A DNA stretch of 64,000 bases. Origin: Escherichia phage StefiGeyer_Bas88. The stretch lies in sequence record PQ850628.1, one strand, 5' to 3'. Positions 18,037-46,308 of this stretch are shown here, piece by piece. The notes under the pieces were generated by a model. It had not been told where the DNA came from. It did no database searches and saw nothing but the letters and a program-made list of their open reading frames with translations. Every line of letters starts with the position of its first letter. The stretch's first letter is position 1. Position numbers and translations under genes: made by a program.

Positions 18037-18855
18037 TTACCAAGTTTTATCTAACCATGACCATTCAAAGAGGTCACCTTCAGCTTGTCCGACGAAGAGC
18101 AATCGAGCATTTTCTAACATCTTAGCTTCTGCTTCTTCCTCGAACCTCTTATAGTATTCCATTCGTATAATATGATAAAGAGTCCACTTATCGAATACCT
18201 TCTCAATAAGTTTGATAGCAGCTTTGCTACCAATACCCTTACGACGCATAACTAAGTTACCGCCCCACATCATTTCAACTTTCTCACCACATCCGGGGAT
18301 GTTGTCTGTACTGTCCCCAATCAACATCTGATAGAAGAAGTTCTGCCATGCTACTTCCTCTGGTACATAATGAGGGGGTACTTCTTTCTGTCGTTCACCA
18401 CAAGCCCAGCGATAATGCCATCCGGGAGTGATTAACAAATCCTTATCACGAGTACAGATGATTGTGTTCTTTTCTATACGCTGTCGTTCAGCGAGTGCAT
18501 CATCTGCTTCTCTGCCAAACACTTCAACATACTGGTAATGTTCTTTGATATAATCACTAACGTTCTGCCAGTGATGTGGCCTTTCTCCCGGAGGTCGGTT
18601 AGCTTTATAACCTTGCTGCTTGGCAACATCGAAGCGGAAGTTTCCACCTTCGCTGAAATAAAAGATTGTTCTTTCACAACCAGCTCTTGAGATGATTACA
18701 TCAATCTTATGTTGGAGACGTTCAATCAAGAATCCATAATCAACTGGAACACGACCTGTGTCTAGGAAAGGATGCTCTTGTGTAAGAGCACCAACCTCAT
18801 ACCGTAGAACATCTGCATCCACAATTGCTACTTCAGGATAGATTACATCAGACAT
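18037..18855 (-). CDS. 5'-3' exonuclease / flap endonuclease (T7 gp6 / T5 D15-like)
   Basis: IVDADVLRY N-terminal motif and LIGDSTDNIPGCGEK...GIGSKAAIKLI helix-hairpin-helix typical of FEN/RNase H-like exonucleases. Confidence 0.7.
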   Translation of the reverse strand: MSDVIYPEVAIVDADVLRYEVGALTQEHPFLDTGRVPVDYGFLIERLQHKIDVIISRAGCERTIFYFSEGGNFRFDVAKQQGYKANRPPGERPHHWQNVSDYIKEHYQYVEVFGREADDALAERQRIEKNTIICTRDKDLLITPGWHYRWACGERQKEVPPHYVPEEVAWQNFFYQMLIGDSTDNIPGCGEKVEMMWGGNLVMRRKGIGSKAAIKLIEKVFDKWTLYHIIRMEYYKRFEEEAEAKMLENARLLFVGQAEGDLFEWSWLDKTW

Positions 18856-19444
18856 AGAGACCTCTCCGTGTCCCTTCAATAATCCACTCCAAATCCTCCA
18901 CTGCCTCTTCTACAGAACGGTCATTAAAGAGGAGGTAGGTTGGTAGGTTTGTTCCTTCAATATAAGAACGGGAGTCCCCTTCAAAGGAGCATCCATCTCG
19001 GAGAATCTGAACTACTCGAACATGGAAACGTTTTTCCAGTTCTTCAACTTCTGCTTTAAACCCACCATCAGAGAATACAATAACATCATTCTGTGTTGGG
19101 ATGCGTTGTTGAATACTGCTAACAGCAAGTTTACCCATGCAGGTATCACCAAACATTGGTTTCAGGTAGTTCTCACTAGTCGCAATCATTAAATCTCGAA
19201 CTGTCTTACCGCCCCATTCAGGACGGCTATATTCTTTCCACTCACGGTCGTTGTATAGCTCCATGAACTCATAAAGAGGAAGTCCTAATGCAGCAGCAGC
19301 CACTCGATACATAGGCTCCTTAAAAGCCTTTACATGCGGTCTAAACTCAGTGTTACCGACGGTCTTCTCTAACCAAGCATTAGCGATTGTATCTTTACCA
19401 CAACCCGGTGGTCCATTCAGAATTACTACTAATGGTTTACTCAT
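18848..19444 (-). CDS. deoxynucleoside monophosphate kinase (T4 gp1-like)
   Basis: P-loop NGPPGCGKDT, the GKDT variant typical of phage dNMP kinases; start overlaps the sigma-factor stop (TAATG). Confidence 0.55.
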   Translation of the reverse strand: MSKPLVVILNGPPGCGKDTIANAWLEKTVGNTEFRPHVKAFKEPMYRVAAAALGLPLYEFMELYNDREWKEYSRPEWGGKTVRDLMIATSENYLKPMFGDTCMGKLAVSSIQQRIPTQNDVIVFSDGGFKAEVEELEKRFHVRVVQILRDGCSFEGDSRSYIEGTNLPTYLLFNDRSVEEAVEDLEWIIEGTRRGLYV

Positions 19445-21974: not shown

Positions 21975-22595
21975 CTACCATTCTAAAAGACCTTTAAAGC
22001 TAGTTTGTTCTACTGTTCTCTGAAAAGGTGAGTTAGATTCAGCTTGTTTACTTAACATCTCTTGTACTTCGCTGGTAATTGGATAATCTTTTTGTAATAA
22101 AGAAGCTACCCACTCTTTCCTACTTTCTAGTTCTTTTCTAATCTCTTGCAGAGATACAGCTCTATAATCAATTTGTTCCATAGAAGTACAAAAGTATCTC
22201 CAATCTTTAATAGTAGAATTATGAGTATGAGCATAGATATTATACTTCCCTCTCATTTCATCAGAGTGAATAGGAATATGAGTTACCCAAAACTCTTTGT
22301 ACTTATAATCACCACTGATGTGTCTAAAGACTTTCATCATATCAGGGAGAAGTTCTAATCTGTCATGGTTTCCTAGGACAAGATGTTTCTCTCCTTTTAC
22401 TTCAGCGATAATATCAAGTGCATATTTCTCAAACACCCAATCACCTGTAAAGAAAGTTTTATCACGTTTAGTAACATGGTCAAAAGCTGCTAGGATAGCT
22501 TTGTCATGTTCTTCAATACTACTAAACTTCTTCCTAAAGTTACAGATGTTACGATGGCCTAGGTGACCATCACCTGCAAAATAAACTTCAGCCAT
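21975..22595 (-). CDS. calcineurin-like metallophosphoesterase
   Basis: GDGHLGH ... FTGDW ... LVLGNHD metal-binding motifs. Confidence 0.65.
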   Translation of the reverse strand: MAEVYFAGDGHLGHRNICNFRKKFSSIEEHDKAILAAFDHVTKRDKTFFTGDWVFEKYALDIIAEVKGEKHLVLGNHDRLELLPDMMKVFRHISGDYKYKEFWVTHIPIHSDEMRGKYNIYAHTHNSTIKDWRYFCTSMEQIDYRAVSLQEIRKELESRKEWVASLLQKDYPITSEVQEMLSKQAESNSPFQRTVEQTSFKGLLEW

Positions 22596-28783: not shown

Positions 28784-29104
28784 TCAGATAGATTTGTCCT
28801 TATGTAAACGATATACTTCAGTAGCCATACAAGCAATACGCTCGTCATGAGGGAGATGCATACCAGTAGAGCCATTCCACCCATTGAACTCTGAATCAAA
28901 GAATCCAATAGGCTCAGGATACATCTCTTGCAAAGTGGTTAAGTCATCAGCCACTTGTTGCCATTTATCATCAGACCAGATTGGGTCATCCAACCAATAA
29001 TACAAATAGGAGTGGATAAGCATCTGCGTTCTGTGTCGTTTAATCACTTCAGCAGGACTAATCTCGTTTCCGTTACCAGTCCTAAATGTATTATCATTAA
29101 TCAT
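28784..29104 (-). CDS. hypothetical protein
   Basis: 106 aa; HSYLYYWLDDPIWSDDKW faintly resembles a ligase N-terminal helix motif but is too short to call. Confidence 0.3.
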   Translation of the reverse strand: MINDNTFRTGNGNEISPAEVIKRHRTQMLIHSYLYYWLDDPIWSDDKWQQVADDLTTLQEMYPEPIGFFDSEFNGWNGSTGMHLPHDERIACMATEVYRLHKDKSI

Positions 29105-29105
29105 T

Positions 29106-29318
29106 TTAAACCTTTTCGATTTTAATTAAATCAACATCAGCCCAAATACCAACAGGTATCAGCTTCTTCTTGGATTTAAGGGCAACATCATAGATGCTTT
29201 GCCAAGGCCAGATAAACACTTCAGAGATAATCTCATAAGGTTCAATCTTGGTGGGGTATGGATTCCTGTCTGAGATACGGAAAGTAAATCGATGTTTTCC
29301 TAATACTAAACCTTTCAT
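29106..29318 (-). CDS. hypothetical protein
   Basis: 70-aa ORF in tight array. Confidence 0.3.
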   Translation of the reverse strand: MKGLVLGKHRFTFRISDRNPYPTKIEPYEIISEVFIWPWQSIYDVALKSKKKLIPVGIWADVDLIKIEKV

Positions 29319-29528
29319 TTACTTAACCTCAATAATCCCAAGTTTCCAAACATATCCGGGAGAAGAGTCCTGAACAGCTCCGTATTGAAGAACAACATCA
29401 CAAGCATCACTACCCATACCATCTAGCATCAGCTGACCACGAGTAGGACGGTCTTTGTAATAAGTTGCTTTTACTTCTGTGTCGTGAGTCCATTCACTAA
29501 AGCATAGACTTAATTTGTAGATTCTCAT
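29319..29528 (-). CDS. hypothetical protein
   Basis: 69-aa ORF. Confidence 0.3.
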   Translation of the reverse strand: MRIYKLSLCFSEWTHDTEVKATYYKDRPTRGQLMLDGMGSDACDVVLQYGAVQDSSPGYVWKLGIIEVK

Positions 29529-30004
29529 TCCAAAACCCTTTCTTCTAAATCATAAAAGATTTGATTTGTCCCATTATTCTCAACAAGCACTGTACCATTA
29601 TCTAACAGAGTAGCAACTTGTGAATAAGGAATGTTCTTTAACATCAGAGCGTTGATGGTTGGCTTATTTTTGAAGTAAGCGACCGGTTCAACATAGAAGG
29701 AAATCCCACGACTCCCTTTGATTGGGGTACTCGAAGATAAAACCCAAATCGTTTCTGGCTTGTCTATTTCCTTTTCAACACCAACCTCAACAAGTGAGTC
29801 AGCAGCGAAACCTACAGGACGACTAGAAGAGCCAAGTGCCCGAATAAATCCTGGCAATTTTGACATGTTAGACCAACTACCAGTGTTTTCATTAAACACA
29901 GGTCTTACGTCTCCATATGCCCAAACCAGATTATCATAGTCACGGGCTATGTATTTAACCCAATCAGGAACATCATACTCCCTTCCTTCAAAAATAGCTT
30001 TCAT
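29525..30004 (-). CDS. hypothetical protein
   Basis: 159-aa ORF; no motif. Confidence 0.35.
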   Translation of the reverse strand: MKAIFEGREYDVPDWVKYIARDYDNLVWAYGDVRPVFNENTGSWSNMSKLPGFIRALGSSSRPVGFAADSLVEVGVEKEIDKPETIWVLSSSTPIKGSRGISFYVEPVAYFKNKPTINALMLKNIPYSQVATLLDNGTVLVENNGTNQIFYDLEERVLE

Positions 30005-30235
30005 TTAGATAACCTTGTGCTTATAGATGTTAGGGTTGTAGTAATGCAACCAGTTTATGTATTGTTTCTGTTCGAGGTAGTGCCTGCAATCATGACAAAA
30101 AGCATGACCCAAACCTGTTTCCTCATTCAGTTTGAAATTGATAAGAAGCTTCTGCTTTCGACAGAAGCTACATGCTTTAGTGGGCTTCACGTAATGCATC
30201 CCAAGAGATTGGATATATTTTACGAAGCTCTTCAT
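30005..30235 (-). CDS. small zinc-ribbon protein (start uncertain)
   Basis: CSFCRK ... CHDCRH Cys pairs; overlaps the 3' end of the ThyX-like gene. Confidence 0.3.
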   Translation of the reverse strand: MKSFVKYIQSLGMHYVKPTKACSFCRKQKLLINFKLNEETGLGHAFCHDCRHYLEQKQYINWLHYYNPNIYKHKVI

Positions 30236-30827
30236 CAATTGTTGATGCGAACACTCGTACTTCGTACTGAGCATGGTCTGACAGTCGCTGACGACACAAC
30301 TCTGACCAACCATATAGAGAACCAGTCCATACCCACTCAGTGATCATACCCTGAGGTAATACGAATCGAGCTTGTTCTGGAGCAATGAACTTAATCAATT
30401 CATCGTACGACTCAAGAGCTGTTTCATATGCTCGGTTAATCAGAACTAGTGCAGAGTTTTGTGCTCCTGTGGTGAGGAGATTCCCTGCACCTGCATGGAG
30501 GTCCGAAGGTCTTTCAAAAATCTCTTTAGGGATGAAGAGTTCAACTGCTCCATCTTTATACCGCCGGGACATTTCGTTCCACGAGAATCCAACTTGATGC
30601 TTGCCCAACTGTCTCGCAATTGCGATTGGCGCTTTGCATCGGAAGCTAATTGTCGGATGACGGAATGGTGTGACATGCTTTTCTCTGGCAAGGAACTTGA
30701 TAAGGCGTTCATCTCGTTCATTTAACTCTCCTTCACGAGTAACCCCAAAGGAAACTCGAGCTGCATTAACAACAGATTTATCAGAACCCATTGCTTCGAT
30801 TAGTGTTGCTTGTAATTGTTCATTCAT
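30177..30827 (-). CDS. thyX: flavin-dependent thymidylate synthase (ThyX)-like, non-canonical RHR motif
   Basis: AARVSF...HVTPF.H...F.CKAPIAIARQ ... SRRY ... SDHAQYE align to ThyX; the RHRx7S motif reads KHQVGFSWNEMS here. Confidence 0.65.
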   Translation of the reverse strand: MNEQLQATLIEAMGSDKSVVNAARVSFGVTREGELNERDERLIKFLAREKHVTPFRHPTISFRCKAPIAIARQLGKHQVGFSWNEMSRRYKDGAVELFIPKEIFERPSDLHAGAGNLLTTGAQNSALVLINRAYETALESYDELIKFIAPEQARFVLPQGMITEWVWTGSLYGWSELCRQRLSDHAQYEVRVFASTIDEELRKIYPISWDALREAH

Positions 30828-30841
30828 CCTTGAACTCTTCC

Positions 30842-31057
30842 TTAATAATGAATCTTTTTATAAATCATGTTGCTTCCACTTTCTGTTTCAATCCCTTTCT
30901 GAATTGTAATCTTAGAAGCGCCAGTGTTAGCAATTTTTAAAGCTCGCTTAAAGCGGCGAGCCTCTCTCCGTGTTGTATATGAGGAGAAACTAGGGATTGT
31001 GCTATCAAAATTAAACCACTTAACTGCCCAAAAAGTAATCCAAGGTTTCTTTTCCAT
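30842..31057 (-). CDS. small basic protein, W..W/TRxEAR/K(V/I)HY family (copy 3)
   Basis: WAVKW ... TRREARRFK ... KIHY, shared with 32922..33128 and 33128..33340. Confidence 0.4.
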   Translation of the reverse strand: MEKKPWITFWAVKWFNFDSTIPSFSSYTTRREARRFKRALKIANTGASKITIQKGIETESGSNMIYKKIHY

Positions 31058-31058
31058 A

Positions 31059-31334
31059 TTAAATACCTTTCAGAGCCGTGTCTAAAAATGCACGGAGATT
31101 AGATTCAGTTTGCATACCTGATAAGCTGTAATGAGCACCACTGTTCTTATCAGGGATGACAAAGGCTGGGATACTGCGAACACCATATTCAATGGCTCGC
31201 TCTCGACCATCACCTTCAGAGATATTTACTTCTTCAACTTCTACACTGTAGTCAGCCACAACCTTCTTAAACACAGGAGCCATAGCTGCACACGGAGCAC
31301 ATGAATTACTATAAAACTTAATTACTTTACTCAT
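31059..31334 (-). CDS. thioredoxin-like protein
   Basis: MSKVIKFYSNSCAPCAAMAPVF with CxxC active site and the cis-Pro region VRSIPAF; ATG at 31334. Confidence 0.6.
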   Translation of the reverse strand: MSKVIKFYSNSCAPCAAMAPVFKKVVADYSVEVEEVNISEGDGRERAIEYGVRSIPAFVIPDKNSGAHYSLSGMQTESNLRAFLDTALKGI

Positions 31335-31524
31335 TCTATTCCTTGTTAATAAACAGGTTGATATGACGCTGGGTAGCAGGAACAACAATAAAAGATTTAT
31401 ACTGACCTTTTGCTAAGTCATGAGCAATCTTCTTTGTCTGACCAAGACCCATCACACAGCCACTAACGATAATGGCATGTGCTTGTAATTCTTCAGGTAG
31501 GTTTAGTTTCACTCTTTAGATTCC

Positions 31525-31710
31525 TTATAGCATACAAAGAATAATAACAAGAGGTAGTGTTATAGCAAAATGTACCAGAACAACACTACCTAGCTTGATA
31601 GCTTTAACATCCTCTTCTGCTGGGTTTTCTTTAATTGCTAAATTTCGAGCTTTATATATAACAGTACCAACTATTAACGACCACACGGCCCACACAATCA
31701 GTGAAATCAT
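31525..31710 (-). CDS. small two-helix membrane protein (paralog 2)
   Basis: Two hydrophobic segments; similar to the adjacent gene (IVWAVWSLIVGTVIY vs IVWSVWAILVGGIVY). Confidence 0.4.
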   Translation of the reverse strand: MISLIVWAVWSLIVGTVIYKARNLAIKENPAEEDVKAIKLGSVVLVHFAITLPLVIILCML

Positions 31711-31719
31711 ATCAAACCC

Positions 31720-31941
31720 TTATGCAGTCAACAGGTGGAGAAGGAAAGGAATGACAACAGAGAAAATTACCAGAGCAATGCTGCCATGTTTAATGGGTTT
31801 AGCATCATTCGGATTTTCTTTAAGCATCTGTTTCTGAGCCAGATAAACGATACCACCAACAAGAATTGCCCACACAGACCATACGATTGCTGAAAACATA
31901 TTCACATCCTTATAAAGAAGTTCGCCCCACCTCTTAAACAA
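31720..31941 (-). CDS. small two-helix membrane protein (paralog 1)
   Basis: Tandem paralog of 31525..31710. Confidence 0.4.
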   Translation of the reverse strand: MFKRWGELLYKDVNMFSAIVWSVWAILVGGIVYLAQKQMLKENPNDAKPIKHGSIALVIFSVVIPFLLHLLTA

Positions 31942-31962
31942 AGAGACAGGGCGGAGGTTTGA

Positions 31963-32529
31963 TTAGTAAGACACGTCACCACTAGAGTGGGACATGTTGC
32001 TCTTGACGAAGTAACAGAACTTGCCAAGACCTTCATTAATTTCTTGAAGCATACTCTGGTCTACTGGATAGGTGCACAAGTCTGAATCAAACTCGTCCAT
32101 CTTTTCAATGATACACATCAGAGTCATGCACATGTCGGAAAGCATACCGTCCATGTCGAGATCAGCACTACCTTCTCTGAACCAAGCACAACTAAGATAG
32201 CTACTAGCTGTTGCATCCACTTTGATACAGTGATAACGCATTCGCTCAGCTACTCGGTCTCCTGTTTCACGAGCATAGTCTTCTAATTCATCGAACATAC
32301 CATGAACACCTTGGAAACCAGCTCCAGAGACGTTCCAGTGGTAATTCTTTGCTTTGATGTGTAGAAGCTCAAGGTTAGCCTGCACACCGCATAGGATGTG
32401 CTCTAGACTGTTACCGCTGATCAGTTTATTCATTCCCTCAAGACGAGAGATAGAGGAGTCAGTTGTAGAGAATGGGTTACTAGAACCCACTCGTGTTAGT
32501 TCAGGTAAGTCGAAGACATTATTATGCAT
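31963..32529 (-). CDS. Dps-like ferritin-fold protein
   Basis: LELLHIKAKNYHWNVSGAGFQGVHGMFDELEDYARETGDRVAERM aligns to the Dps ferroxidase region, with the His, His, Asp and Glu ligand positions present. Confidence 0.55.
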   Translation of the reverse strand: MHNNVFDLPELTRVGSSNPFSTTDSSISRLEGMNKLISGNSLEHILCGVQANLELLHIKAKNYHWNVSGAGFQGVHGMFDELEDYARETGDRVAERMRYHCIKVDATASSYLSCAWFREGSADLDMDGMLSDMCMTLMCIIEKMDEFDSDLCTYPVDQSMLQEINEGLGKFCYFVKSNMSHSSGDVSY

Positions 32530-33540: not shown

Positions 33541-34070
33541 ACCCCTTTAGATGCAACTACACTATTGCTACCATTGTAGCGACCCTTCACTGCATATGAA
33601 TCGTCGCCAGCGTGAGAGTGTTCAAACATAACCATCTGACCAACACGCATTCCAGCACGAACTCGTAAGCTGTGATTGTGGGTAACATTATGGAACTCAA
33701 AGGTCAGCTTACTGTTGTTAAACCCTGCATCAGCCCAACCAGCATGGAGATGGTTTAAACCACAACGAGCCATTGAGGAGCGGAGTACAAACAGACTTGA
33801 AATATTATCTGGAAGGTTAAACTCTTCCATTGAGTGAGCTAAGAAGAACTGTCCCGGAGTGATAACGATACCATCTTCAGGGATTTTTACTTCTTTCCAC
33901 TTGAGGTTTTCTTTAGCATCAATGTCAACAATACCATCAGCCTGCTCTTCAACAAGGATAGTATCACCAATACGGATATCCACACTAGCAGCGTTAACAT
34001 ACTTATGCTCCGCATCTAAAAAGCCATTATCAATAACGCTGTGTAATTCTTGAGAACCTAAAAGACTCAT
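33537..34070 (-). CDS. dcd: dCTP deaminase (dUTPase fold)
   Basis: FVLRSSMARCGLNHLHAGWADAGFNNSKLTFEF matches the dCTP deaminase/dUTPase family core. Confidence 0.7.
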   Translation of the reverse strand: MSLLGSQELHSVIDNGFLDAEHKYVNAASVDIRIGDTILVEEQADGIVDIDAKENLKWKEVKIPEDGIVITPGQFFLAHSMEEFNLPDNISSLFVLRSSMARCGLNHLHAGWADAGFNNSKLTFEFHNVTHNHSLRVRAGMRVGQMVMFEHSHAGDDSYAVKGRYNGSNSVVASKGV

Positions 34071-35503
34071 GAGTTTCTGTTTCCTTGTACAGATGATGCC
34101 AAATTGTTAATCATATTACGAGCTGTTTCACGAGTTAGTGTAACACCTGCTAAGTTGTTATGAAGTTCACCAGAGAGTTCACGAGCAGTAGCCCGAAGCT
34201 CTTCACCAAGTGAAGTGTTAGAGTGAGCCAAACCATTACGACGACCAACAGGTCGAGGAGTTTCGTTAGCGTCATTAGCTAAAGATGCAAAACCAATACG
34301 AGCAGCTTCACGAGCGGCTATAGCTGCTACCCGATCTTCCGTAGGGGTTGGCAAATCACCAACCCCTACACGTTCAATATCACTAGCACGTAGACCCTGA
34401 GTAACAGATCTTACTGTTTCCCATGAACGACGAGAGCGCTGCAAATCATCCATTGATGGAGAAGAAACAGGACGAGCAGTTCCTCCTGAGACATGCCATG
34501 TATGGTTATGCATTCCAGAAGATCGTGCACTACCAAAACTACCGGTGAAAGTATCACGAGGTGCCATTGTACTAGGGGCTGCGAATCTTGCCTGTTGCCA
34601 AGAGTCACGTCTGTCAGTTCCCGGAGTCCAAGGCTGCGTAATTGCTTCAACACCAATAGTGGTTAACTCACTAGACCAATCTGTCTGTAGGTTAACTTCT
34701 TCATCCAGATAGATACGACCCGCTTCCTGAGGAATATTTAATACAGTTTCCATCATCTTCAAGGTGTAGTGGCGACGTTGATTCTGATACAAGTTTACAC
34801 CAGCCATAGGCCCAACTAAATCACTGATCAGATGAACTTCTGGTTCACCAAAAGCTCCCATTGCAAGGTGCATATACTCAGTAGAACTGCTGTAAACTGC
34901 AACTGTTGCTTCAGGCCACTTTTTGTGGACATACTTCATGTCACGACTTGTCACCACAGGGATATCATTAGTATATGCCATTGCAAACATACCTTCGTTC
35001 GACACATACATATCATCGAGAGTCATAAACCCTTGACAGATCATAGGGAAGCGACCGCTCAGAGTATCCATATCCAGAGGAAGGTTAATCATCATCTGAA
35101 TCTTCACTTCATCAATCTCAATTTCCAGAATCTCTTGGAAAGTGAAAAGTGCGTCAGCATAAGTTGTCCCACTAACAGGCTGGACTAAACGAGATGTAAC
35201 TTGAAGTCCCTTACTCTCTGTCCAAGACAAGAAGTTGTCAAGGAACAGTGCAGCATTACCCACGTTAGCAGGGCTGTTTTCCTGACGAGTGTTCCAACGA
35301 AACCCTCCTTGAACTAGGAAGATATCAACATCATTCGGAGTTCGGTTCTGGAAGAACGTATCACGGATAGCACCACCTGCAATAACAGGATAAATACCAT
35401 CAGGGACTACGTTATCTCTGATCAAATTACGAATCAGGTCAAGCCCTACGCTGAGGGCTTCTCCTTCTTGAAGGTTCAATTCAGACAATGGAATCTTAAT
35501 CAT
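34067..35503 (-). CDS. nucleotidyltransferase with CCA-adding/poly(A) polymerase-type head domain and divergent C-terminal region
   Basis: VIAGGAIRDTFFQNRTPNDVDIFL matches the GGxxRD...DxD head-domain signature of class-II tRNA nucleotidyltransferases; C-terminal ~200 aa is low complexity. Confidence 0.45.
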   Translation of the reverse strand: MIKIPLSELNLQEGEALSVGLDLIRNLIRDNVVPDGIYPVIAGGAIRDTFFQNRTPNDVDIFLVQGGFRWNTRQENSPANVGNAALFLDNFLSWTESKGLQVTSRLVQPVSGTTYADALFTFQEILEIEIDEVKIQMMINLPLDMDTLSGRFPMICQGFMTLDDMYVSNEGMFAMAYTNDIPVVTSRDMKYVHKKWPEATVAVYSSSTEYMHLAMGAFGEPEVHLISDLVGPMAGVNLYQNQRRHYTLKMMETVLNIPQEAGRIYLDEEVNLQTDWSSELTTIGVEAITQPWTPGTDRRDSWQQARFAAPSTMAPRDTFTGSFGSARSSGMHNHTWHVSGGTARPVSSPSMDDLQRSRRSWETVRSVTQGLRASDIERVGVGDLPTPTEDRVAAIAAREAARIGFASLANDANETPRPVGRRNGLAHSNTSLGEELRATARELSGELHNNLAGVTLTRETARNMINNLASSVQGNRNS

Positions 35504-37874: not shown

Positions 37875-38081
37875 TCAATAAAACGAACGTATTTCTTCCC
37901 ACACATCATCTTGAAGATTTTTAAAACCCTGTAAAGCTGATTGGGTTCTCATGATAAAGTCTTCAGAATGTTTATTGCGGTCAAGCATACTGACAAACTT
38001 GTCATAGCGGTTAATCTTCCACCGTAACTTTAAGTAGTCAGACTCGAGCTTTCTCAGCTTCTGTCGCTCAGTTACTGTCAT
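37875..38081 (-). CDS. hypothetical small protein (start uncertain)
   Basis: ORF overlaps the GGCT-like gene end; internal ATG likely. Confidence 0.25.
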   Translation of the reverse strand: MTVTERQKLRKLESDYLKLRWKINRYDKFVSMLDRNKHSEDFIMRTQSALQGFKNLQDDVWEEIRSFY

Positions 38082-38499
38082 CCTGATCACCTGCCAGATA
38101 CGCTGTCCAGTCGCCAGATTCAACCAAAACATCTTGTTCTTCGTCGATATGATAAATCCATGCTTCCACAGTCTCGCCATTATCCAGCACCACTGGAATC
38201 AGTGTACGATTGTAGAAAGTGTATGGATTGTCTTTACCACGATAACCTTCCAGACCGTCATACGGACCTTCCAGACCAGCTTGGGTTGTTTCAAAGACTT
38301 CTACACGAACAGGCTTGCCATTGCTGTCATGCACCAGAGATACACTTGGGAAGTATGCTGTGCAATACTGATACAGGTTACAGTTGTTCACTGTCCAACC
38401 TTCACCAATAGACACACCACCTGCACGAGCATTGATAGCGTGGTTGTGTTGACCTTTACGAAGAGAACCATACGTTGCAACTAATACTTTATCAGACAT
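38068..38499 (-). CDS. gamma-glutamyl cyclotransferase (GGCT/AIG2)-like protein
   Basis: N-terminal VLVATYGSLRKGQHNH matches the YGSL motif of the GGCT/AIG2 fold; 143 aa. Confidence 0.45.
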   Translation of the reverse strand: MSDKVLVATYGSLRKGQHNHAINARAGGVSIGEGWTVNNCNLYQYCTAYFPSVSLVHDSNGKPVRVEVFETTQAGLEGPYDGLEGYRGKDNPYTFYNRTLIPVVLDNGETVEAWIYHIDEEQDVLVESGDWTAYLAGDQDDSN

Positions 38500-38564
38500 T
38501 ATATTACCTTTTGTGTTTCAGTTAAATTCGAACTAGCCTCCTCTTTCGAAGAGGCTAAAGCAAA

Positions 38565-38750
38565 TTATTCTACTTCGAAGTGTTTGATCACACCAGTCAA
38601 TACATCAGATTGGAACGTACCTACTAACTCTGCGCCTCGGAAGAAATTGACATTTGTTCCAAGTGTTTCAAAGCGTTCTGCTTGAATGTCCAGAGATTGA
38701 ATATTCCCTTCTGAGTTTACTGTACGAAACATGATTGTGTATTTATTCAC
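38565..38750 (-). CDS. hypothetical protein
   Basis: 61-aa ORF. Confidence 0.25.
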   Translation of the reverse strand: MNKYTIMFRTVNSEGNIQSLDIQAERFETLGTNVNFFRGAELVGTFQSDVLTGVIKHFEVE

Positions 38751-38989
38751 AGAGTTGTTACTCCCTTATCTTCTTGTGCAATTGCGATGATACGCTCAAC
38801 ACATTCCATTGAATATTTATCACCTCGTTTAAGGAAGGTGACAATTGCAGAGAACTGATTACCAATCATTCTCTTGTTTGTGATTCCAAACTCTTCACAG
38901 AGTTGGTTAATAGCTTTACGAGAACCAACAATCAGAGGTTCTTTTTGTTCGGTCATTCCACGACTGATCAAATCTTCGATAGACAACAT
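38747..38989 (-). CDS. hypothetical protein
   Basis: 80-aa ORF. Confidence 0.3.
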   Translation of the reverse strand: MLSIEDLISRGMTEQKEPLIVGSRKAINQLCEEFGITNKRMIGNQFSAIVTFLKRGDKYSMECVERIIAIAQEDKGVTTL

Positions 38990-39009
38990 TACAAATTCCT
39001 TTTGTTTAA

Positions 39010-40257
39010 TTACAGAGTTACTGCTACTTCACTACCTTCAACAGTTACAGACTCTAACTTACGAGGGTTGTGGACTTGTTGCGGATGAACCGGAACGTTC
39101 CAGCCACTGCGGTAGAAGTTACGACCATCGCAGAACAGAATGACATTGGCAGACATTGCATTAGGTTGCAGGTTGTTATGAACATGACGAATATCTGCAA
39201 TCCAGTAACCACGAGACAACACATAACCAGTAGGTGCATTACGGATTGTCTGAGTATTCATCTGACCTTCCAGTTGCATTTCTTCAGGAACTACATCCAC
39301 TGAATCAACCGGCTGTGCGACTTGGCCTTCCAGTGCGAAGTTTTCATCATCAGCACTTTCACTGTCAGCAACCAATTCACCATCTCCATCTTCAATTGGA
39401 GCTTCAACAGGTGTTGCATAAACCACTTTATACTGAGGAGTATAGAGAGGGTTTTGAGCTTTAACAAACTCAAGGATATTGTGACGGTAGATATCCAGAG
39501 TTGTGCCAGTTAGGCCCGGTGCTGTATTAACTTCCAGTACCCATGCTTCTTGACCTTTGGTGATGATATCAACTGCACCGAAATCTAGACCCATTGATTC
39601 AACAGCTTTCACTGCGTTGATCAGAGAGGCATCGTTCGGAACGTCTGTGAAGGAACTTGAGTAAACCCAACCAGTGTGATGGTTACGAACATCTTCACGA
39701 TAGTTAGGGTCTTCACGATAACCGTTACGACGAATCTTTTTCTGAACATAGGTGATAGCACCTTTGAACACATGGACACGCCATTCACGACGTGGGCCTA
39801 GAATACCTTTGGTGTACAGTTCAGCTTGACCAACTGAATCACGAGGCTCTACAACAATGATACCTGAACCAGAGTGACCAGTCAGTTCATGACGTTCATA
39901 CACAATGTTGCCAGAGTTTGACCACTCCTGAGCAGTTGATTGAACATCTGTATACTCAACAGTTTTAACACCTGCTTGGTCCATTACACTGAAAGCGCGA
40001 CGTTTGTTCGCTGCCATATGTAAGGCTGCGGTACGGTTAAGAACAGTTGCAGAACCAAAGAAGGATTCAGGATAGCGACGGTTCCCGTAGTTCACAACCA
40101 CATCACCCTCACGAGAACGCCAGCGACTGTTCTCTGAAAGAAGACCCATTACGTTAGCGTTGATACGTTCATCACGGATAGTATCGTTAATGGCAGTTAC
40201 CAGAGCGTTAACAGAATCAGAAGGGCCATACGGAAGAACACGGATACGAGTAGTCAT
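39010..40257 (-). CDS. ATP-grasp ligase, RimK-like
   Basis: GLDFGAVDIITKGQEAWVLEVNTAPGL matches the RimK-type ATP-grasp C-terminal motif; acidic insert EDGDGELVADSESADDENF. Confidence 0.6.
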   Translation of the reverse strand: MTTRIRVLPYGPSDSVNALVTAINDTIRDERINANVMGLLSENSRWRSREGDVVVNYGNRRYPESFFGSATVLNRTAALHMAANKRRAFSVMDQAGVKTVEYTDVQSTAQEWSNSGNIVYERHELTGHSGSGIIVVEPRDSVGQAELYTKGILGPRREWRVHVFKGAITYVQKKIRRNGYREDPNYREDVRNHHTGWVYSSSFTDVPNDASLINAVKAVESMGLDFGAVDIITKGQEAWVLEVNTAPGLTGTTLDIYRHNILEFVKAQNPLYTPQYKVVYATPVEAPIEDGDGELVADSESADDENFALEGQVAQPVDSVDVVPEEMQLEGQMNTQTIRNAPTGYVLSRGYWIADIRHVHNNLQPNAMSANVILFCDGRNFYRSGWNVPVHPQQVHNPRKLESVTVEGSEVAVTL

Positions 40258-40259
40258 TT

Positions 40260-40490
40260 TTAGATACCTTTTAGTTTAAGAATTTCGTTACGACAGGATT
40301 GAATTTTAACTTCGATTTCCCAATACTTGGCGAACATCTCGTCTTCTTGGTCATCGCTTGGTGAATCAATTAGGTTAAAAGCAAACGGATACAGCTTTCG
40401 CTGCTCCGTTACCAGTTGTTGAAGTCGGAGTTGTTGATACTCCAGCATTGTCAGGTGAGGCTTAGCTCCCTTGCTTGACATGAGGCTCAA
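40260..40490 (-). CDS. hypothetical small protein
   Basis: 76-aa ORF inside the cluster. Confidence 0.3.
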   Translation of the reverse strand: MSLMSSKGAKPHLTMLEYQQLRLQQLVTEQRKLYPFAFNLIDSPSDDQEDEMFAKYWEIEVKIQSCRNEILKLKGI

Positions 40491-40695
40491 CTTTAATCCC
40501 CTTCAATTTCACATAGTCAGCCAACACGTTGTTGATAACGGTTGGGAAAGGGATTTCAACTGGAGAGTTAACCAGTCCCCCAATACCTTCTTGCATCCAT
40601 TTCTGAATAGCTCGAAGGTTATCACATCCTGTGCTTGTCATTGGGATACGTCGAGTGGTTACAACGTTATCCAACATCAATTTACGAACTTCCAT
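40462..40695 (-). CDS. hypothetical small protein
   Basis: 77-aa ORF inside the cluster. Confidence 0.3.
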   Translation of the reverse strand: MEVRKLMLDNVVTTRRIPMTSTGCDNLRAIQKWMQEGIGGLVNSPVEIPFPTVINNVLADYVKLKGIKVEPHVKQGS

Positions 40696-40706
40696 AACTT
40701 CACCTC

Positions 40707-42710
40707 TTAATGTTTACCTTTACAGTAATCTGAATTACAGATCACCCTGTTTTCTTTGTTTAGTGAGCAAATTTCTGCATCACGCCACGGAATTTGTTTA
40801 TAACAGACCGCACAAAACCCAATTGAAGTCCAGAGGGCTTTTGTGAACTCAGCTGTTCGTTGTCCGTCGTAACTGACAACTGTTTTTCGGAGAGTTGTTT
40901 GCTTTTCTGGAAATGTTTCCGCTTTCTCAGCGGGCACCTCCTTTGGGGCATTCTTTGGACCATAAACAGAGATGGCATAGGTATCGCCACCACGTTTTTC
41001 CAAATAAGAGTTTGGAACATCAGACAGCTCAATATCACCAGAACGTTTAGCTGAACTAGCCATTACAGTCATTCGGCTAAGCATACGCTGATCAACACGA
41101 ACTGCTACTTCAGGGCGACGTGGGTTAGTTGTGTCGACTGCTTTAGTCCAAATGTAACCTTCAGACAATGTAGTGTTAGTCACTTTGTCTTTGATTTCTT
41201 TGGCACAGACATAACAAATATCTTCACCACGAAGTTTACTCATTTCGTTATCAAACTCGAAATCAGTTTTAACATTGCCACATACAGCACAGACACCTAA
41301 AGGAATGTCTTCATCTTCTTCAGACGGTTTGGACAACGCTTCGAAACAGGCCGGATGCCAATATGCTTGGTAAGCGAACACAGCTTTCTTAGCATCTTTC
41401 CATTCAATGTGCTTGTCACAACCGCCACAATCACCATGAGAATGTGATTCCCAGAACTTACGGGTGACTTCCACACCATTCTTAGTGATGAAGGAGTCTT
41501 CTAAATCAAAAGGGATATCATCATCAAAATCAGCGGTGGTGCTTTGAGGCTCCTTATCGGTAGCATCAACAAACAGCCCTGAAGTGAGTACGAGGCGAAT
41601 CATACTGTCCACTTCGGAGATACAAGCAACCGTCCCGCGATACACCACCTTTGGGTTTTCGAGAGCCTTCAAGTATTCACTCTTGGCTACATTATGAACA
41701 TCACCCTCAACATACTCTTGAGCAGCATCATCATAAATATAACCAACCATCTTACCACGGTCAGTGTTGTTGTAAGCGTGGAACTCGTGAGGGATGATAT
41801 CCACACGACCGTCACGACGATACGGAAGACCACGATCGGCAGCCAGTTTATTCTGATCTTCAATCGCTTTACGACGACGAATGTCTCCGCTTGTCACGCC
41901 GGGCTTGTCGTCTTTGTTTCCGTAAATGTCGCTTGTGCTGCTGCTTGACTTGTTTGTCTGTTGGTTCTGATATAGAGAGGAGTTCGAGTAATAGCCGCCC
42001 CAGCGACTCGTTACCGTAAAAACCGGAAGCTTGTGCTCCACCTCTTGAGTCAGAGTCATACGGTTGCCAGACAAATCAAAGATGTATTCAGTTCCCACTT
42101 TACACTCAAAGTGATCATTGATACGGTTCTTGTGTGACTTGGAACGATTAAGAATCCACATCAACATATCTTCTTCAGAAGCACCAAACCAATCCAGACC
42201 ACAACGGGCCAGATGGAAAGGACGTTCATCGTTACGAATGATATGCAGAGTATTGTCTTTGGCGTCATGCCAGATTAAAGTGAACGCACCATCCAACTTC
42301 TGGATAGTCTCTGCTGCGCCGATGGTGTTGATTGAATGACAGATGTTTTCGCTATCAACTTCGAAATTCTTATGATCTGGTAACAGTTCCTGATCTAACA
42401 GTGTACCATTATGAACCAGAGTAATGTCACCATGAGAGAATGGGTGAGCATTTCGAGCATTGACAGCACCACGTGTGGCATGTCGGCTATGACCAACAAT
42501 CCACGATGGAGGAACTACATAGTTCGTAAGCCCCTTAGTAAGATTCGTGTACCCTGTCTGGAGCATGAAGGCATAGGAAGGAAGTGCTTCTTTATAAGAA
42601 AATACTTTTTCATCACCTTTACGCTGACCGAACACACCAGTTGAGTGCTGACCACGGAAGACTCCAGCATACAGAAGCTGGTTGAATACGTCTAAGTCTG
42701 TGGAGGTCAT
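40707..42710 (-). CDS. class-II (Ntn-type) glutamine amidotransferase domain protein with C-terminal zinc ribbons
   Basis: GHSRHATRGAVNARNAHPFSHGDITLVHNGTL matches the GAT-II core; C-terminal CxxC clusters (CGGCDKH, CAVCGN, CYVCAK, CAVCYK); N-terminus is MTSTD, with no Cys at position 2. Confidence 0.55.
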   Translation of the reverse strand: MTSTDLDVFNQLLYAGVFRGQHSTGVFGQRKGDEKVFSYKEALPSYAFMLQTGYTNLTKGLTNYVVPPSWIVGHSRHATRGAVNARNAHPFSHGDITLVHNGTLLDQELLPDHKNFEVDSENICHSINTIGAAETIQKLDGAFTLIWHDAKDNTLHIIRNDERPFHLARCGLDWFGASEEDMLMWILNRSKSHKNRINDHFECKVGTEYIFDLSGNRMTLTQEVEHKLPVFTVTSRWGGYYSNSSLYQNQQTNKSSSSTSDIYGNKDDKPGVTSGDIRRRKAIEDQNKLAADRGLPYRRDGRVDIIPHEFHAYNNTDRGKMVGYIYDDAAQEYVEGDVHNVAKSEYLKALENPKVVYRGTVACISEVDSMIRLVLTSGLFVDATDKEPQSTTADFDDDIPFDLEDSFITKNGVEVTRKFWESHSHGDCGGCDKHIEWKDAKKAVFAYQAYWHPACFEALSKPSEEDEDIPLGVCAVCGNVKTDFEFDNEMSKLRGEDICYVCAKEIKDKVTNTTLSEGYIWTKAVDTTNPRRPEVAVRVDQRMLSRMTVMASSAKRSGDIELSDVPNSYLEKRGGDTYAISVYGPKNAPKEVPAEKAETFPEKQTTLRKTVVSYDGQRTAEFTKALWTSIGFCAVCYKQIPWRDAEICSLNKENRVICNSDYCKGKH

Positions 42711-42817
42711 GTTGCCCCCAGCTAATACGATACCACAAATTTTCTAATCCACCTGAAGGGTAAACCCTTTCATCTAATTAACCTTTAAATGCGCCCTTTA
42801 TCAGAGCGCCCATTGTG

Positions 42818-43918
42818 TTACAGCAGTCGTTCTAATTGCATTTCCAGATGGTCTGGAATGTAATCGGTGATGTTATTATCACTGCTACCTGATTCACGCA
42901 TCAGAGCAAACATGTGACGAATTTCACGAACCGTTGCGATTCGAGTGTTTTCAATCTGAGGGGTGTAATAGGTCATGATCTCTTCATAAACAGAGTTAGC
43001 ATTACCTCGTACATATCCCAAGAAACCGTAGAAGTCACCCATGTCACGCAAGTTGATAAGGATTTCACCATCAGGTCCAGTCTGCTGTACACGAACACGA
43101 CCAACCAGAGTAACAGAATGTTCACGACAGAACAGAATATCACGAGCCAAACGATAACCGCCAGTCAGGTCATCATCATTAGGTGTGTAGTCCAGAGGCA
43201 GATACTGAATCATAGGAGCGAAGCGTAGCTCATTCAGTTTCTCAACATATGCTTCATTGTCCAAATCTGCATACTCAACAGCTAGTTTCTTGAGAACCAA
43301 GAAGCGGTTGACCAGATTAAGGAGTTGGCTTTTCTTCCACTTTGGCTCTGAGATACGAAATTCAACAGAACCAAACTGAGCCAGAGGTAATAGGTTAAGG
43401 GAGGTGTACTTGTCCCAGCTATTAACAAGAGTATTGAAGAAGGCTTCACCATCTCGGTTGAACGCTGCGGAAGCATTCATTACCTGTGCTTGAACAACAG
43501 CAAAGGCAGGACAGAAGTTGCTACGATAGCGATGGTATCCAGAACATTTGAACATCATCTTTTCATAGAACGTCCATCCAAGAATTACTTTCTTCAGGAT
43601 GTTACTATCAGCGTCACGCATATCCATATGAACGTGAGTAGAGCAGCGCCAAGTCCCTTCAGCTTCAGAGTCTTGTACTGCTTCACTCAGATTGTTAATA
43701 GCACTAAGCAATTCTACACCGTTATAAGGCCGTGCACAAACCATCTCACAGCCATCACGAAGTGAACCATCTTCAGTACAAACCCAAAGGTCTGCATCAA
43801 TTTCAGAGGTTCCTTCAACTTCCAGCTCGATGCCAATACCACACTGAAAAGCGATGCTTGGGTGCGGCTCAGCCAGACGAGCATTACGGTATCCAAAAAC
43901 TTGTGCTACGGTTGTCAT
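42818..43918 (-). CDS. amidoligase, glutamine synthetase/GCS2-like (copy 1)
   Basis: GIGIELEVEG and CSTHVHMD motifs typical of carboxylate-amine ligases of the GCS2/amidoligase family. Confidence 0.5.
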   Translation of the reverse strand: MTTVAQVFGYRNARLAEPHPSIAFQCGIGIELEVEGTSEIDADLWVCTEDGSLRDGCEMVCARPYNGVELLSAINNLSEAVQDSEAEGTWRCSTHVHMDMRDADSNILKKVILGWTFYEKMMFKCSGYHRYRSNFCPAFAVVQAQVMNASAAFNRDGEAFFNTLVNSWDKYTSLNLLPLAQFGSVEFRISEPKWKKSQLLNLVNRFLVLKKLAVEYADLDNEAYVEKLNELRFAPMIQYLPLDYTPNDDDLTGGYRLARDILFCREHSVTLVGRVRVQQTGPDGEILINLRDMGDFYGFLGYVRGNANSVYEEIMTYYTPQIENTRIATVREIRHMFALMRESGSSDNNITDYIPDHLEMQLERLL

Positions 43919-44541
43919 AACGTTTCCACCAACTCTACATTATATGATGACAGATCTGAAGAAATATGCTTGAACTTCTCCAGAAGATTTAAAGATTGAC
44001 GACCATTGTCGCCGTAACCAGCAGAAAGATCAACTTGACCTACAAGTGCCCCTTTGTAATAAACTTTACCATCGACAGGGTTGATGTAGATGAAGCGAGT
44101 AACCAGACCTTCGAAGTCAGGATTAAACAGATTATACACCAGCTCTCCCGGAATCGAACGACCCATTGAAGGAGGTGCGCCACGTAATTTGTTCCCCATC
44201 AGACCTTTAGCTCGCTGACGAACAGGGTTGATATGAGTCCAGCTTACCATGTTGTTGCCGTGTTGTAAGTATCCCACATCTGGAGATTCCAGAATAAGGC
44301 TTTGATCAAACACAGGAATGCCCTGAACAACCTGTCGTTCAAACTGCCCTTCGGCGTTCTTAGACCAGCGTTCAACTTCAAAAGTTAAGGCCATTTCTGC
44401 TTCGTGAGAGAAGTCATCTTCTCCAAAGCGGTTTGCTTGGTTCACGTTGAGTACATAAAGAGGTAAGTTAATTCCTCGTTCTGCACGTTGGGCAATCCAT
44501 GTTCCGCAATAATAATGCTGAAAATCTCTTAACAGGCTCAC
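43915..44541 (-). CDS. hypothetical protein in amidoligase cluster
   Basis: 208 aa; start overlaps the upstream stop; no motif. Confidence 0.35.
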   Translation of the reverse strand: MSLLRDFQHYYCGTWIAQRAERGINLPLYVLNVNQANRFGEDDFSHEAEMALTFEVERWSKNAEGQFERQVVQGIPVFDQSLILESPDVGYLQHGNNMVSWTHINPVRQRAKGLMGNKLRGAPPSMGRSIPGELVYNLFNPDFEGLVTRFIYINPVDGKVYYKGALVGQVDLSAGYGDNGRQSLNLLEKFKHISSDLSSYNVELVETL

Positions 44542-44550
44542 GATAACACC

Positions 44551-46300: not shown

Positions 46301-46308
46301 ATTCGCCT

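Follow-up and report, generated by a model that had tools for sequence, protein, structure and literature searches.

The window analysed here, 64,000 nucleotides from the phiEco32-like Kuravirus StefiGeyer_Bas88, carries on its minus strand a 216-aa open reading frame whose limits coincide exactly with the interval picked out in an earlier note on this DNA. This gene and the nucleotide-metabolism and redox genes that bear on it are as follows:

30177..30827, minus strand: thyX coding sequence, flavin-dependent thymidylate synthase of the K-H-x/S-R-R-Y subfamily (216-aa open reading frame; profile and fold matches)
31059..31334, minus strand: thioredoxin-domain protein, two small genes upstream of thyX (Pfam Thioredoxin, E 7.5e-13; a 276-nt homologue is annotated in phage Bas87)
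33537..34070, minus strand: dCTP deaminase (Pfam DCD, E 1.1e-34; TIGR02274, 104.8 bits, cut-off 92.8)
18848..19444, minus strand: dNMP kinase (phrog_139, E 7e-41; annotated as deoxynucleoside monophosphate kinase in Bas87)

The thyX product was matched by the Pfam profile Thy1 (PF02511) over residues 8-206, corresponding to positions 1-190 of the 191 in the profile (E 5.1e-43), and this full-length match scored 147.5 bits compared to a curated cut-off of 24.8. The TIGR02170 thyX equivalog scored 123.2 bits (cut-off 87.9), and the ThyX proteins of T. thermophilus and T. maritima were aligned end to end with it (E 6.5e-29 and 4e-26, respectively), so that the description of the protein as ThyX-like along its full length was borne out. 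The AF2 model had a pLDDT of 87.2 and a pTM of 0.82; it is a monomer and cannot show the three-subunit active site. The top Foldseek matches of the model were all ThyX (TM 0.75-0.83, E ~1e-16), with a TM of approximately 0.8 for T. maritima ThyX. No homology to ThyA (PF00303) was found, as the Pfam search matched Thy1 only and every Foldseek match was a ThyX. A 100% identical gene in phage vB_EcoP_HC-25922 is annotated as thymidylate synthase.

The gene lies in the phage replication module, and the dCTP deaminase, dNMP kinase and thioredoxin that had been named as its companions were confirmed by the Pfam, TIGR and phrog matches listed above. In contrast, the HAD phosphatase named with them was not found among the open reading frames scanned, and the phosphatase-like gene at 21975-22595 encodes a calcineurin-like metallophosphoesterase. 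The predicted structure of a 478-aa 'nucleotidyltransferase' had a pLDDT of 33.

Signature motif and active-site residues

The R-H-R-x7-S 'ThyX motif' is attributed to Myllykallio 2002 in PMC2826268. It was drawn from early sequences as a description and is not a proven requirement. Residues of the Bas88 protein were compared with T. maritima ThyX and with 125 subfamily representatives, namely those, each of 300 aa or less, that were aligned from the best 150 50%-identity cluster representatives. The features that bear on the comparison are, all on the minus strand:

30594..30602, minus strand: K76-H77-Q78 codons, opposite T. maritima R78-H79-R80 (direct reading; HMMER against PDB ThyX chains)
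30570..30593, minus strand: loop V79-M86 (VGFSWNEM), eight residues versus seven in T. maritima; N84 and E85 correspond to T. maritima N85 and E86
30558..30569, minus strand: S87-R88-R89-Y90 codons, corresponding to T. maritima S88-G89-R90-Y91; R88 is the additional arginine that marks the subfamily
30657..30677, minus strand: H51-V-T-P-F-R56-H57 codons, corresponding to T. maritima H53...E58-H59; the H53 equivalent is kept and the canonical invariant E58 is replaced by Arg
30366..30368, minus strand: R154 codon, corresponding to T. maritima R147 (conserved in 125/125 representatives)
30312..30314, minus strand: Y172 codon, at T. maritima R165 (never basic in the 125 representatives)
30285..30287, minus strand: R181 codon, corresponding to T. 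maritima R174, the uracil-contacting arginine (conserved in 125/125 representatives)

Bas88 ThyX does not carry RHRx7S; its motif is K76-H77-Q78-x8-S87. Mis-registration of the motif was ruled out, since HMMER, MAFFT and direct reading of the DNA concur, and the replacement of RHR by K-H-Q-VGFSWNEM-S reported in the earlier note is real; the conserved arginines that would have pointed to a wrong registration did not appear in the alignment. In HMMER, S87 (30569-30567) pairs with T. maritima S88 and the loop is longer by one residue, and the same x8 spacing is present in canonical RHR enzymes of mycobacteriophage Spud and a Bacillus phage. The accompanying view of the RHR arginines as contacts of the dUMP phosphate held only in part. 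In PMC3498832 dUMP is hydrogen-bonded by Arg78 and Arg80, and in PMC6514825 RHR mainly binds the FAD phosphates and ribityl and only the first Arg also touches the isoalloxazine and dUMP.

Residue roles were taken from PMC6514825 and PMC3498832, apart from those given as presumed; the numbering below is that of T. maritima ThyX unless Bas88 residues are named. Of the 21 residues invariant among eight canonical ThyX, 18 are retained in Bas88 ThyX. The nucleotide-binding and catalytic residues H53, Q75, E86, S88, R90, Y91, R147 and R174 are all present, and together with E144 and Q180 they are invariant or nearly so in the 125 representatives. The three invariants lost are R80, R165 and E58, the last of which presumably has a flavin role in canonical ThyX. 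The canonical flavin phosphate and ribityl contacts were absent, with Q78 at the second Arg of RHR and Y172 at R165. Across the representatives, position 80 is occupied by Q, K, T or H (Arg in 3/125), position 165 by Y, A, L or F, and position 58 by A, R, S or G. Conserved residues have also been gained, R at position 89 (121/125) and H at position 59, and Bas88 ThyX has R56 besides. In contrast, RHR was found in 120/120 and Arg89 in 0/120 of a canonical sample in which position 89 is G, Q or L, a phylogenetically narrow set made up of Thermotogae and cyanophage matches alone.

Because R80, R165 and E58 are missing, cofactor affinity or identity could differ. The enzyme might convert dUMP to dTMP as usual and yet hold a loose or exchangeable FAD or FMN, R88 and R56 of the Bas88 protein then binding the nucleotide; we consider this unlikely, though less so than any other departure from the standard enzyme discussed below. 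S30 and S/T55 remain conserved, and most of the 125 representatives have a basic residue (R or H) at position 169, which argues against it insofar as these are, as we take them to be, flavin-side residues. The variability of positions 58 and 165 in the subfamily suggests relaxed constraint there and speaks in its favour. So do the losses themselves, which include residues assigned to FAD phosphate and ribityl binding in PMC6514825, and the finding that in PBCV-1 ThyX the position-89 side chain can enter the dUMP phosphate pocket (PMC3498832). T. maritima R165, whose counterparts are R165 in H. pylori and R190 in M. tuberculosis, is in canonical ThyX a flavin-phosphate contact that a neighbouring subunit provides (PMC6514825, for the H. 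pylori and M. tuberculosis residues).

Extent of the subfamily and the question of DNA modification

The rarity of K-H-Q implied in the earlier note did not hold, as a very large ThyX subfamily normally carries it. K-H-Q was unchanged in 120/120 of the closest homologues, at identities down to 51%, and the pattern K/R-H-x...S-R-R-Y was common to the best 150 50%-identity cluster representatives, in 144 of which the motif could be located. At least 600 genes of this subfamily were found in IMG/VR, and it was sampled in phages of Chaseviridae, Schitoviridae, Zobellviridae, Barbavirus and others. As judged by sequence, the subfamily is a large, mostly viral ThyX branch that also occurs in bacterial genomes and is distinguished by K/R-H-x...S-R-R-Y from the R-H-R...S-G/Q-R-Y enzymes. 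The PDB ThyX sequences that could be read were all RHR, with no solved structure from the K-H-x/SRRY subfamily, and the literature consulted yielded neither a biochemical characterisation or discussion of phage ThyX motif variants nor an assay of any K-H-x/SRRY enzyme.

Association with pyrimidine or dNTP metabolism was found in the phage, in a Spirochaetia chromosome and in Dependentiae-type MAG loci. The Spirochaetia MAG chromosome (OZ251568.1, 1.79 Mb) encodes a K-H-Q/SRRY ThyX that is 45% identical to Bas88 ThyX, and its gene adjoins pyrD, a pyrF/pyrE fusion, pyrB and a gene for a pyrC-like amidohydrolase. An R-H-T/SRRY thyX with dcd immediately after it was found at seven MAG loci, of which four carry Babeliales or TM6 (Dependentiae) labels; aaRS, ankyrin and LRR genes are the neighbours of these pairs. 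The dcd genes beside thyX were sought by tblastn with the TM6 Dcd, the phage Dcd being too insensitive a query. A literature search on thymidylate synthesis in Dependentiae found nothing useful.

A ThyX that departs from the signature at two of its three residues and has lost canonical flavin contacts could be a dead relic, or a regulator that binds nucleotide or flavin. That reading is barely credible in view of the invariance of catalytic and substrate residues across hundreds of clusters and the housekeeping gene contexts in bacteria. Selection points the same way, with a pairwise dN/dS between the Bas88 and Bas87 genes of 0.058/0.88 = 0.065, and together with the conservation among homologues this value ruled out a decaying or one-off thyX. 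Inteins also home to the motif loop: four relatives carry HNH inteins within it, in some of them between F and S, as would be expected of a constrained active-site segment.

The earlier note had offered as a second reading an altered substrate or product tied to base modification. As considered here, ThyX would make a non-canonical pyrimidine nucleotide for phage DNA, for instance 5-hydroxymethyl-dUMP arising when the exocyclic methylene intermediate is hydrated, or the methylated form of another substrate, and so explain the restriction resistance of Gordonclarkvirinae. These phages are reported to resist all tested RM systems with no modification pathway known, and covalent DNA modification is suspected by the authors of that work (PMC11990801); 5-hmdUMP is moreover an acid-trapped intermediate of ThyX catalysis (PMC3498832). 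The signature motif does differ from RHR, and sites for EcoRV, EcoRI and EcoKI do occur in the 64,000-nt window.

Several observations are contrary to it. The K-H-Q/SRRY type is spread over many unrelated phage groups, and K-H-Q or related SRRY enzymes are encoded beside pyrimidine genes or dcd in bacterial chromosomal contexts. No change is seen in the residues by which uracil is read and dUMP is held. The window shows strong avoidance of both palindromes and CCWGG, and the avoidance of palindromes suggests that restriction sites of this DNA are exposed to cleavage. The DNA of phiEco32 has been restriction-mapped (profiled) and subcloned (PMC9965538), and the known phage hydroxymethylases are ThyA-type and not ThyX-type (PMC8989533, PMC3498832). 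Synthesis of such a nucleotide by ThyX is therefore very unlikely, and this second reading gained no positive support, K-H-Q being normal for the subfamily and the nucleotide-binding and catalytic residues being intact. A narrower version, in which the rewired flavin site alters the last step and the Gordonclarkvirinae ThyX releases a modified dUMP (e.g., 5-hydroxymethyl-dUMP) beside or instead of dTMP, is if anything slightly less probable still; if true, it would supply a thymidine modification yet to be discovered and account for the RM resistance of Gordonclarkvirinae.

The K-H-Q change in Bas88 ThyX is thus genuine but commonplace, and it does not indicate that the DNA is modified. Gordonclarkvirinae may carry a DNA modification yet to be discovered, but the tempting, unsupported link from a 'broken' ThyX motif to such a modification is removed, and the cause of their restriction resistance should first be sought elsewhere.

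Proposed function and comparison with known ThyX proteins

The Bas88 gene very probably encodes a functional flavin-dependent thymidylate synthase (ThyX/FDTS, EC 2.1.1.148) of the viral-rich K-H-x/SRRY subfamily. The first reading of the earlier note, a divergent but functional ThyX, is thus well supported by the subfamily-wide motif, the intact catalytic residues and the pyr and dcd contexts. If it works as its T. maritima homologue does, the enzyme would be a homotetramer that binds dUMP stacked on the reduced flavin, and the methylene of CH2-H4folate would pass by way of flavin N5 to C5 of dUMP, reduction then giving dTMP. The difference from the textbook enzyme would lie in the flavin-phosphate binding shell, from which R80, R165 and E58 are gone, and the R at position 89, the H at position 59 and R56 may assume some of the phosphate binding. 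During infection, dUTP would come from the dCTP deaminase of the phage and is presumably converted to dUMP by the host Dut; dUMP would be methylated to dTMP by ThyX, and dTMP phosphorylated to dTDP by the phage dNMP kinase. The likely outcome is more dTTP for a genome of 42% G+C replicating in a host of 51% G+C.

A large uncharacterised branch of ThyX, mostly viral but with bacterial members, thus falls outside RHRx7S, a signature by which at least one evolutionary study filtered its sequences (PMC2826268). The replacement of two flavin-phosphate arginines and E58, with a new arginine by the substrate loop, is of modest relevance to enzymologists, to the design of ThyX inhibitors and to annotation rules.

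The closest characterised enzymes are T. maritima ThyX (TM0449; PDB 1KQ4, 1O26 and others) and T. thermophilus Thy1 (PDB 6J61), which have approximately 32% identity and the same fold (TM ~0.8) and share H53, R74, Q75, E86, S88, R90, Y91, E144, R147, R174 and Q180 with Bas88 ThyX. Compared to T. maritima ThyX, R78 is replaced by K, R80 by Q, E58 by R, R165 by Y and G89 by R, and the motif loop has one more residue.

PolB, a ThyX-fold paralogue, demonstrates that this fold can also come to serve a different nucleotide substrate. We take PDB 4P5A to be this enzyme, the UMP/dUMP C5-methylase of polyoxin biosynthesis in Streptomyces cacaoi. It keeps RHR and S-A-R-Y, whereas Bas88 ThyX has K-H-Q and S-R-R-Y. 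A PolB-type methylase was rejected, as 4P5A matched at E 5.5e-17 compared to 6.5e-29 for T. thermophilus ThyX and the gene lies in a phage replication module and not in an antibiotic cluster.

The ThyA-type dUMP and dCMP hydroxymethylases of SPO1, T4 and relatives are likewise phage nucleotide-pool enzymes that place a one-carbon unit at pyrimidine C5. Their fold is, however, unrelated to that of ThyX, and the phage base-modifying synthases in the literature consulted all belong to the ThyA family.

The ThyX A674R of the chlorovirus PBCV-1 (PDB 2CFA, 4FZB) is a characterised ThyX that is virus-encoded like that of Bas88, and it is thought to raise dTTP for an A+T-rich genome (PMC10142491). It is distant from Bas88 ThyX (E 1.3e-8), and both it and cyanophage ThyX retain RHR-x7-SQRY. 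Its position 89 is a Gln with a long side chain that can reach the dUMP phosphate pocket; in Bas88 ThyX, an Arg stands there.

Family, fold and motif of the phage ThyX

The product of thyX (30177..30827, minus strand, 216 aa), a flavin-dependent thymidylate synthase, matched Pfam Thy1 across its whole length (E 5.1e-43) and scored 123 bits against the NCBI thyX equivalog TIGR02170, for which the cut-off is 87.9. Solved ThyX structures aligned with it end to end (6J61, E 6.5e-29; T. maritima 1KQ4, E 4e-26), and the best Foldseek matches of its AlphaFold2 model, built with 34 homologues (pLDDT 87, pTM 0.82), were all ThyX, with TM scores of 0.75-0.83. The lowest-confidence part of the model was the motif loop (pLDDT 66-73), in keeping with the flexibility of a loop close to the ThyX active site that takes part in binding dUMP (PMC3498832).

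The earlier note had read K-H-Q at the position of the canonical RHR. The DNA at the motif, GGC AAG CAT CAA GTT GGA TTC TCG TGG AAC GAA ATG TCC CGG CGG TAT, is translated as G-K-H-Q-V-G-F-S-W-N-E-M-S-R-R-Y. This registration was correct, since in the HMMER alignment R78-H79-R80 of T. maritima pairs with K76-H77-Q78 and its S88 with S87, the loop of the phage protein being longer by a single residue. The resulting x8 spacing is not special, because it occurs together with an intact RHR in mycobacteriophage Spud (RHRSGWSYNEES) and in a Bacillus phage (RHRVGFSYSVQS).

In a collection of 5.8 billion proteins, K-H-Q was found in 120 of the 120 closest proteins, down to 51% identity. Mean column identity in the 34-sequence alignment was only 63%, and dN/dS between the window gene and its counterpart in phage Bas87 was 0.058/0.88 = 0.065 (Nei-Gojobori). 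Strong purifying selection acts on the motif. ThyX was present in 1529 phage records by tblastn, and the phages nearest to the query were sampled from these matches for the triplet at the RHR position. R-H-R was kept in the more distant ThyX of Thermus phiLo, Spud, PaMx25, S-RIM2, RcMrWorf, Loktanella pCB2051-A and a Bacillus phage.

Triplets at the RHR position in the sampled phages
K-H-Q: Pectobacterium PP101 (Chaseviridae), Aeromonas 4_4572, Vibrio 11895-B1 and 536
K-H-K: Rheinheimera barba phages, Klebsiella P184 (Schitoviridae)
K-H-E: Roseobacter CRP-2, Alcaligenes QDWS535
K-H-M: a Zobellviridae phage (KZY1)
K-Y-A: Streptomyces Wofford

At least 600 relatives were found in IMG/VR, and the best 80 loci nearly all read ARQLxKHQxGxxWNExSRRY. 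When 1.84 billion cluster representatives were searched exhaustively, 6928 relatives were found, of which 345 had E <= 1e-30. The best 150 of the 6928, each representing one 50%-identity cluster, were examined, and the motif was identifiable in 144. All 144 carried an S-x-R-Y segment, S-R-R-Y in nearly all, and none had R-H-R in the motif context displayed; the triplet lay outside that context in four intein-containing members. The rarity that had been implied for K-H-Q was not borne out by these counts, which show a subfamily trait rather than a peculiarity of this phage.

Residues kept and changed

Representatives of 300 aa or fewer (n=125) were aligned to T. maritima ThyX for residue counts. 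Invariant or nearly so were R28, S30, H53, P56, F57, H59, Q75, E86, S88, R90, Y91, E144, R147, R174, Q180 and E182.

Residues at changed T. maritima positions in 125 subfamily representatives
E58: A, R, S, G and others; no E among the seven commonest residues
R78: K 103, R 21
H79: H 110, S 14
R80: Q 68, K 18, T 15, H 7, V 5, E 5, R 3
G89: R 121
R165: Y, A, L, F, M and others; none basic among the seven commonest residues

The window protein retained 18 of the 21 residues invariant across eight canonical ThyX, the changes being E58 to R56, R78 to K76 and R80 to Q78. In a narrow sample of canonical sequences (Thermotogae and cyanophages only), RHR-x7-S was present in 120/120 and Arg89 in 0/120 (SQRY 96, SGRY 17, SLRY 7). 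The PDB ThyX sequences read (T. maritima, T. thermophilus, PBCV-1 and entry 4P5A) all carried RHR, with position 89 occupied by G, Q or A; thus, judged from these sequences, the subfamily has no solved structure.

According to a review, the RHR motif makes hydrogen bonds to FAD, both to the phosphate of its AMP half and to the ribityl and phosphate of its FMN half; the first motif Arg additionally touches the isoalloxazine and dUMP, and a Ser and an Arg of the neighbouring subunit also contribute (H. pylori S50 and R165; M. tuberculosis S71 and R190) (PMC6514825). This neighbouring Arg was assigned to T. maritima R165 because its distance along the sequence to the Arg that binds uracil (T. maritima R174, H. 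pylori R174, M. tuberculosis R199) is constant. Arg78, Arg80, Ser88 and Arg90 are listed as hydrogen-bonding dUMP, and in PBCV-1 the position-89 side chain can sit in the pocket for the dUMP phosphate (PMC3498832). Read against these residue roles, the substrate and catalytic shell is retained in the subfamily, while E58, invariant in canonical ThyX, and two arginines that contact the flavin phosphates are gone. The subfamily has gained a conserved Arg89 (R88 in the window protein), to which the window phage adds R56, and these gains may compensate for the lost arginines and E58. Neither a solved structure nor, in the literature searched, any published biochemistry was found for this K/R-H-x/S-R-R-Y branch, and the finding therefore keeps some minor interest for enzymologists and annotators.

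Gene neighbourhood and the proposed DNA modification

Window positions 29000-32000 shared 99.2% identity with Escherichia virus TH43 and 92-96% with ECBP2, IME267, 4E8 and the BASEL phage AnnaHegner/Bas87. The phage and these relatives belong to Kuravirus, a genus of phiEco32-like podoviruses in the subfamily Gordonclarkvirinae. The syntenic Bas87 gene is annotated as thymidylate synthase and belongs to a minus-strand module for replication and nucleotide metabolism with DNA polymerase, PhoH, thioredoxin, dCTP deaminase, 'nucleotidyltransferase', primase/helicase and dNMP kinase. Other genes considered in the window were:

21975-22595 (-), calcineurin-like metallophosphoesterase (PF00149; phrog_547)
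28784-29104 (-), 'DNA ligase' of relatives, 106-aa ORF (PF22745, E 1e-33)
31963-32529 (-), 'DNA binding protein' of relatives (phrog_3636) with a ferritin-like (Dps-type) domain (PF00210, E 2e-7)
34067-35503 (-), 'nucleotidyltransferase', 478 aa, overlapping the dcd start (phrog_12715 only)
38068-47526 (-), gene cluster: gamma-glutamyl cyclotransferase-like, class II glutamine amidotransferase, Amidoligase_2 and phiEco32-like COOH-NH2 ligase

The phosphatase-like gene, earlier taken for a HAD phosphatase, is the metallophosphoesterase, and no HAD-family protein was found among the window ORFs scanned. The Dps-type protein could be relevant to DNA protection. The ORF at 28784-29104, annotated 'DNA ligase' in relatives, is limited to the NAD+-binding Ia domain from the N-terminus of NAD-dependent DNA ligase and lacks the adenylation domain. 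A mechanical ORF downstream of thyX (30005-30313, minus strand) overlaps its 3' end by 137 nt; its true start is probably internal, since the annotated Bas87 homologue (L001:12582-12767) has only 61 aa and a 14-nt overlap. Directly upstream of thyX, Bas87 carries an HNH endonuclease gene that is absent from the window. The cluster at 38068-47526 also holds a weak RimK-like ATP-grasp match and several proteins without a family match, and one of its proteins has a Pfam family named after phiEco32.

According to the BASEL authors, Gordonclarkvirinae resist restriction-modification systems remarkably well, and neither a modification pathway nor an inhibitor of restriction is known in them; a covalent modification is their speculation, in its simplest form dU replacing dT, on the basis of the dCTP deaminase and the adjacent nucleotidyltransferase, which was flagged as a possible DNA-modification enzyme (PMC11990801). 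The latter protein had no Pfam, NCBIfam or PDB match, its homologues were confined to kuraviruses (at least 85% identity), and its AlphaFold2 model was unreliable (pLDDT 33); its N-terminal GGAIRD...DVDIF pattern resembles the polymerase-beta/CCA-adding nucleotidyltransferase signature.

Because this resistance lacks a known cause, the suspicion in the earlier note that ThyX has an altered substrate or product touches an open question. An altered ThyX product is very improbable, and five points speak against ThyX as the cause of the resistance. The same ThyX type occurs in unrelated phage groups and on bacterial chromosomes, the residues with which it binds uracil and dUMP have not changed, and a working thymidylate synthase speaks against dU-DNA, not for it. 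Moreover, phiEco32 DNA has been restriction-profiled and subcloned (PMC9965538). The window also strongly avoids 6-bp palindromes (594 observed versus 1072 expected from base composition over 1-64000, with 12 absent) and CCWGG (4 versus 74), a pattern expected if DNA sites are exposed to cleavage; GATC and several 4-mers were also low. Related phages are reported to resist the EcoRV, EcoRI, EcoKI and EcoP1 systems (PMC11990801), for which the window contains 24, 8, 8 and 110 sites, respectively; resistance to the first three is still unexplained, because their sites are present. The altered-activity reading is thus unsupported, and thyX is an ordinary, already annotated Kuravirus component of a large ThyX branch with a non-textbook signature.

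Inteins and cellular relatives

An HNH-containing intein was found in four relative proteins (P0121, P0132, P0225 and P0265) exactly between K-H-Q-V-G-F and S-W-N-E, corresponding to window position ~30584/30585, with Ser or Cys as the +1 residue. Inteins typically home to the most conserved protein segments, and their presence inside the signature loop also points to constraint.

When one genome per species was scanned, 156 cellular relatives were found, in which the triplet was K-H-Q, K-H-K, K-H-M/V, R-H-T, K-H-S or others, followed by SRRY in nearly all. A K-H-Q/SRRY ThyX with 45% identity to the window protein lies on the 1.79-Mb Spirochaetia MAG chromosome OZ251568.1 (L101:5980-6636), flanked on one side by citrate synthase, aldo-keto reductase and short-chain dehydrogenase, and on the other by the pyrimidine de novo pathway genes for dihydroorotate dehydrogenase (pyrD), an OMP decarboxylase/phosphoribosyltransferase (pyrF/pyrE) fusion, aspartate carbamoyltransferase (pyrB) and an amidohydrolase. 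No phage genes were found around this locus, and the context is bacterial, not prophage.

In candidate division TM6 bacterium GW2011_GWF2_37_49, an R-H-T/SRRY ThyX adjoins a class II aminoacyl-tRNA synthetase, with dCTP deaminase directly after thyX. A thyX-dcd pair was found in seven MAG loci (L134:5890-7265; L125, L131, L149, L156, L168 and L178), four labelled Babeliales or TM6 and three only 'uncultured Pseudomonadota', with identities between the loci of ~60% for ThyX and ~74% for Dcd; neighbours were aminoacyl-tRNA synthetase and ankyrin-repeat and LRR-repeat proteins. Since pyrimidine genes and dcd are the neighbours in these bacterial genomes, the natural reading of the Spirochaetia and TM6-type contexts is a housekeeping thymidylate synthase. 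Together with homology, fold, kept residues and selection, they support the other proposal of the earlier note, a divergent but functional ThyX, with activity as a prediction. The bacterial thyX-dcd contexts mirror the pairing of dcd and thyX in the window phage.
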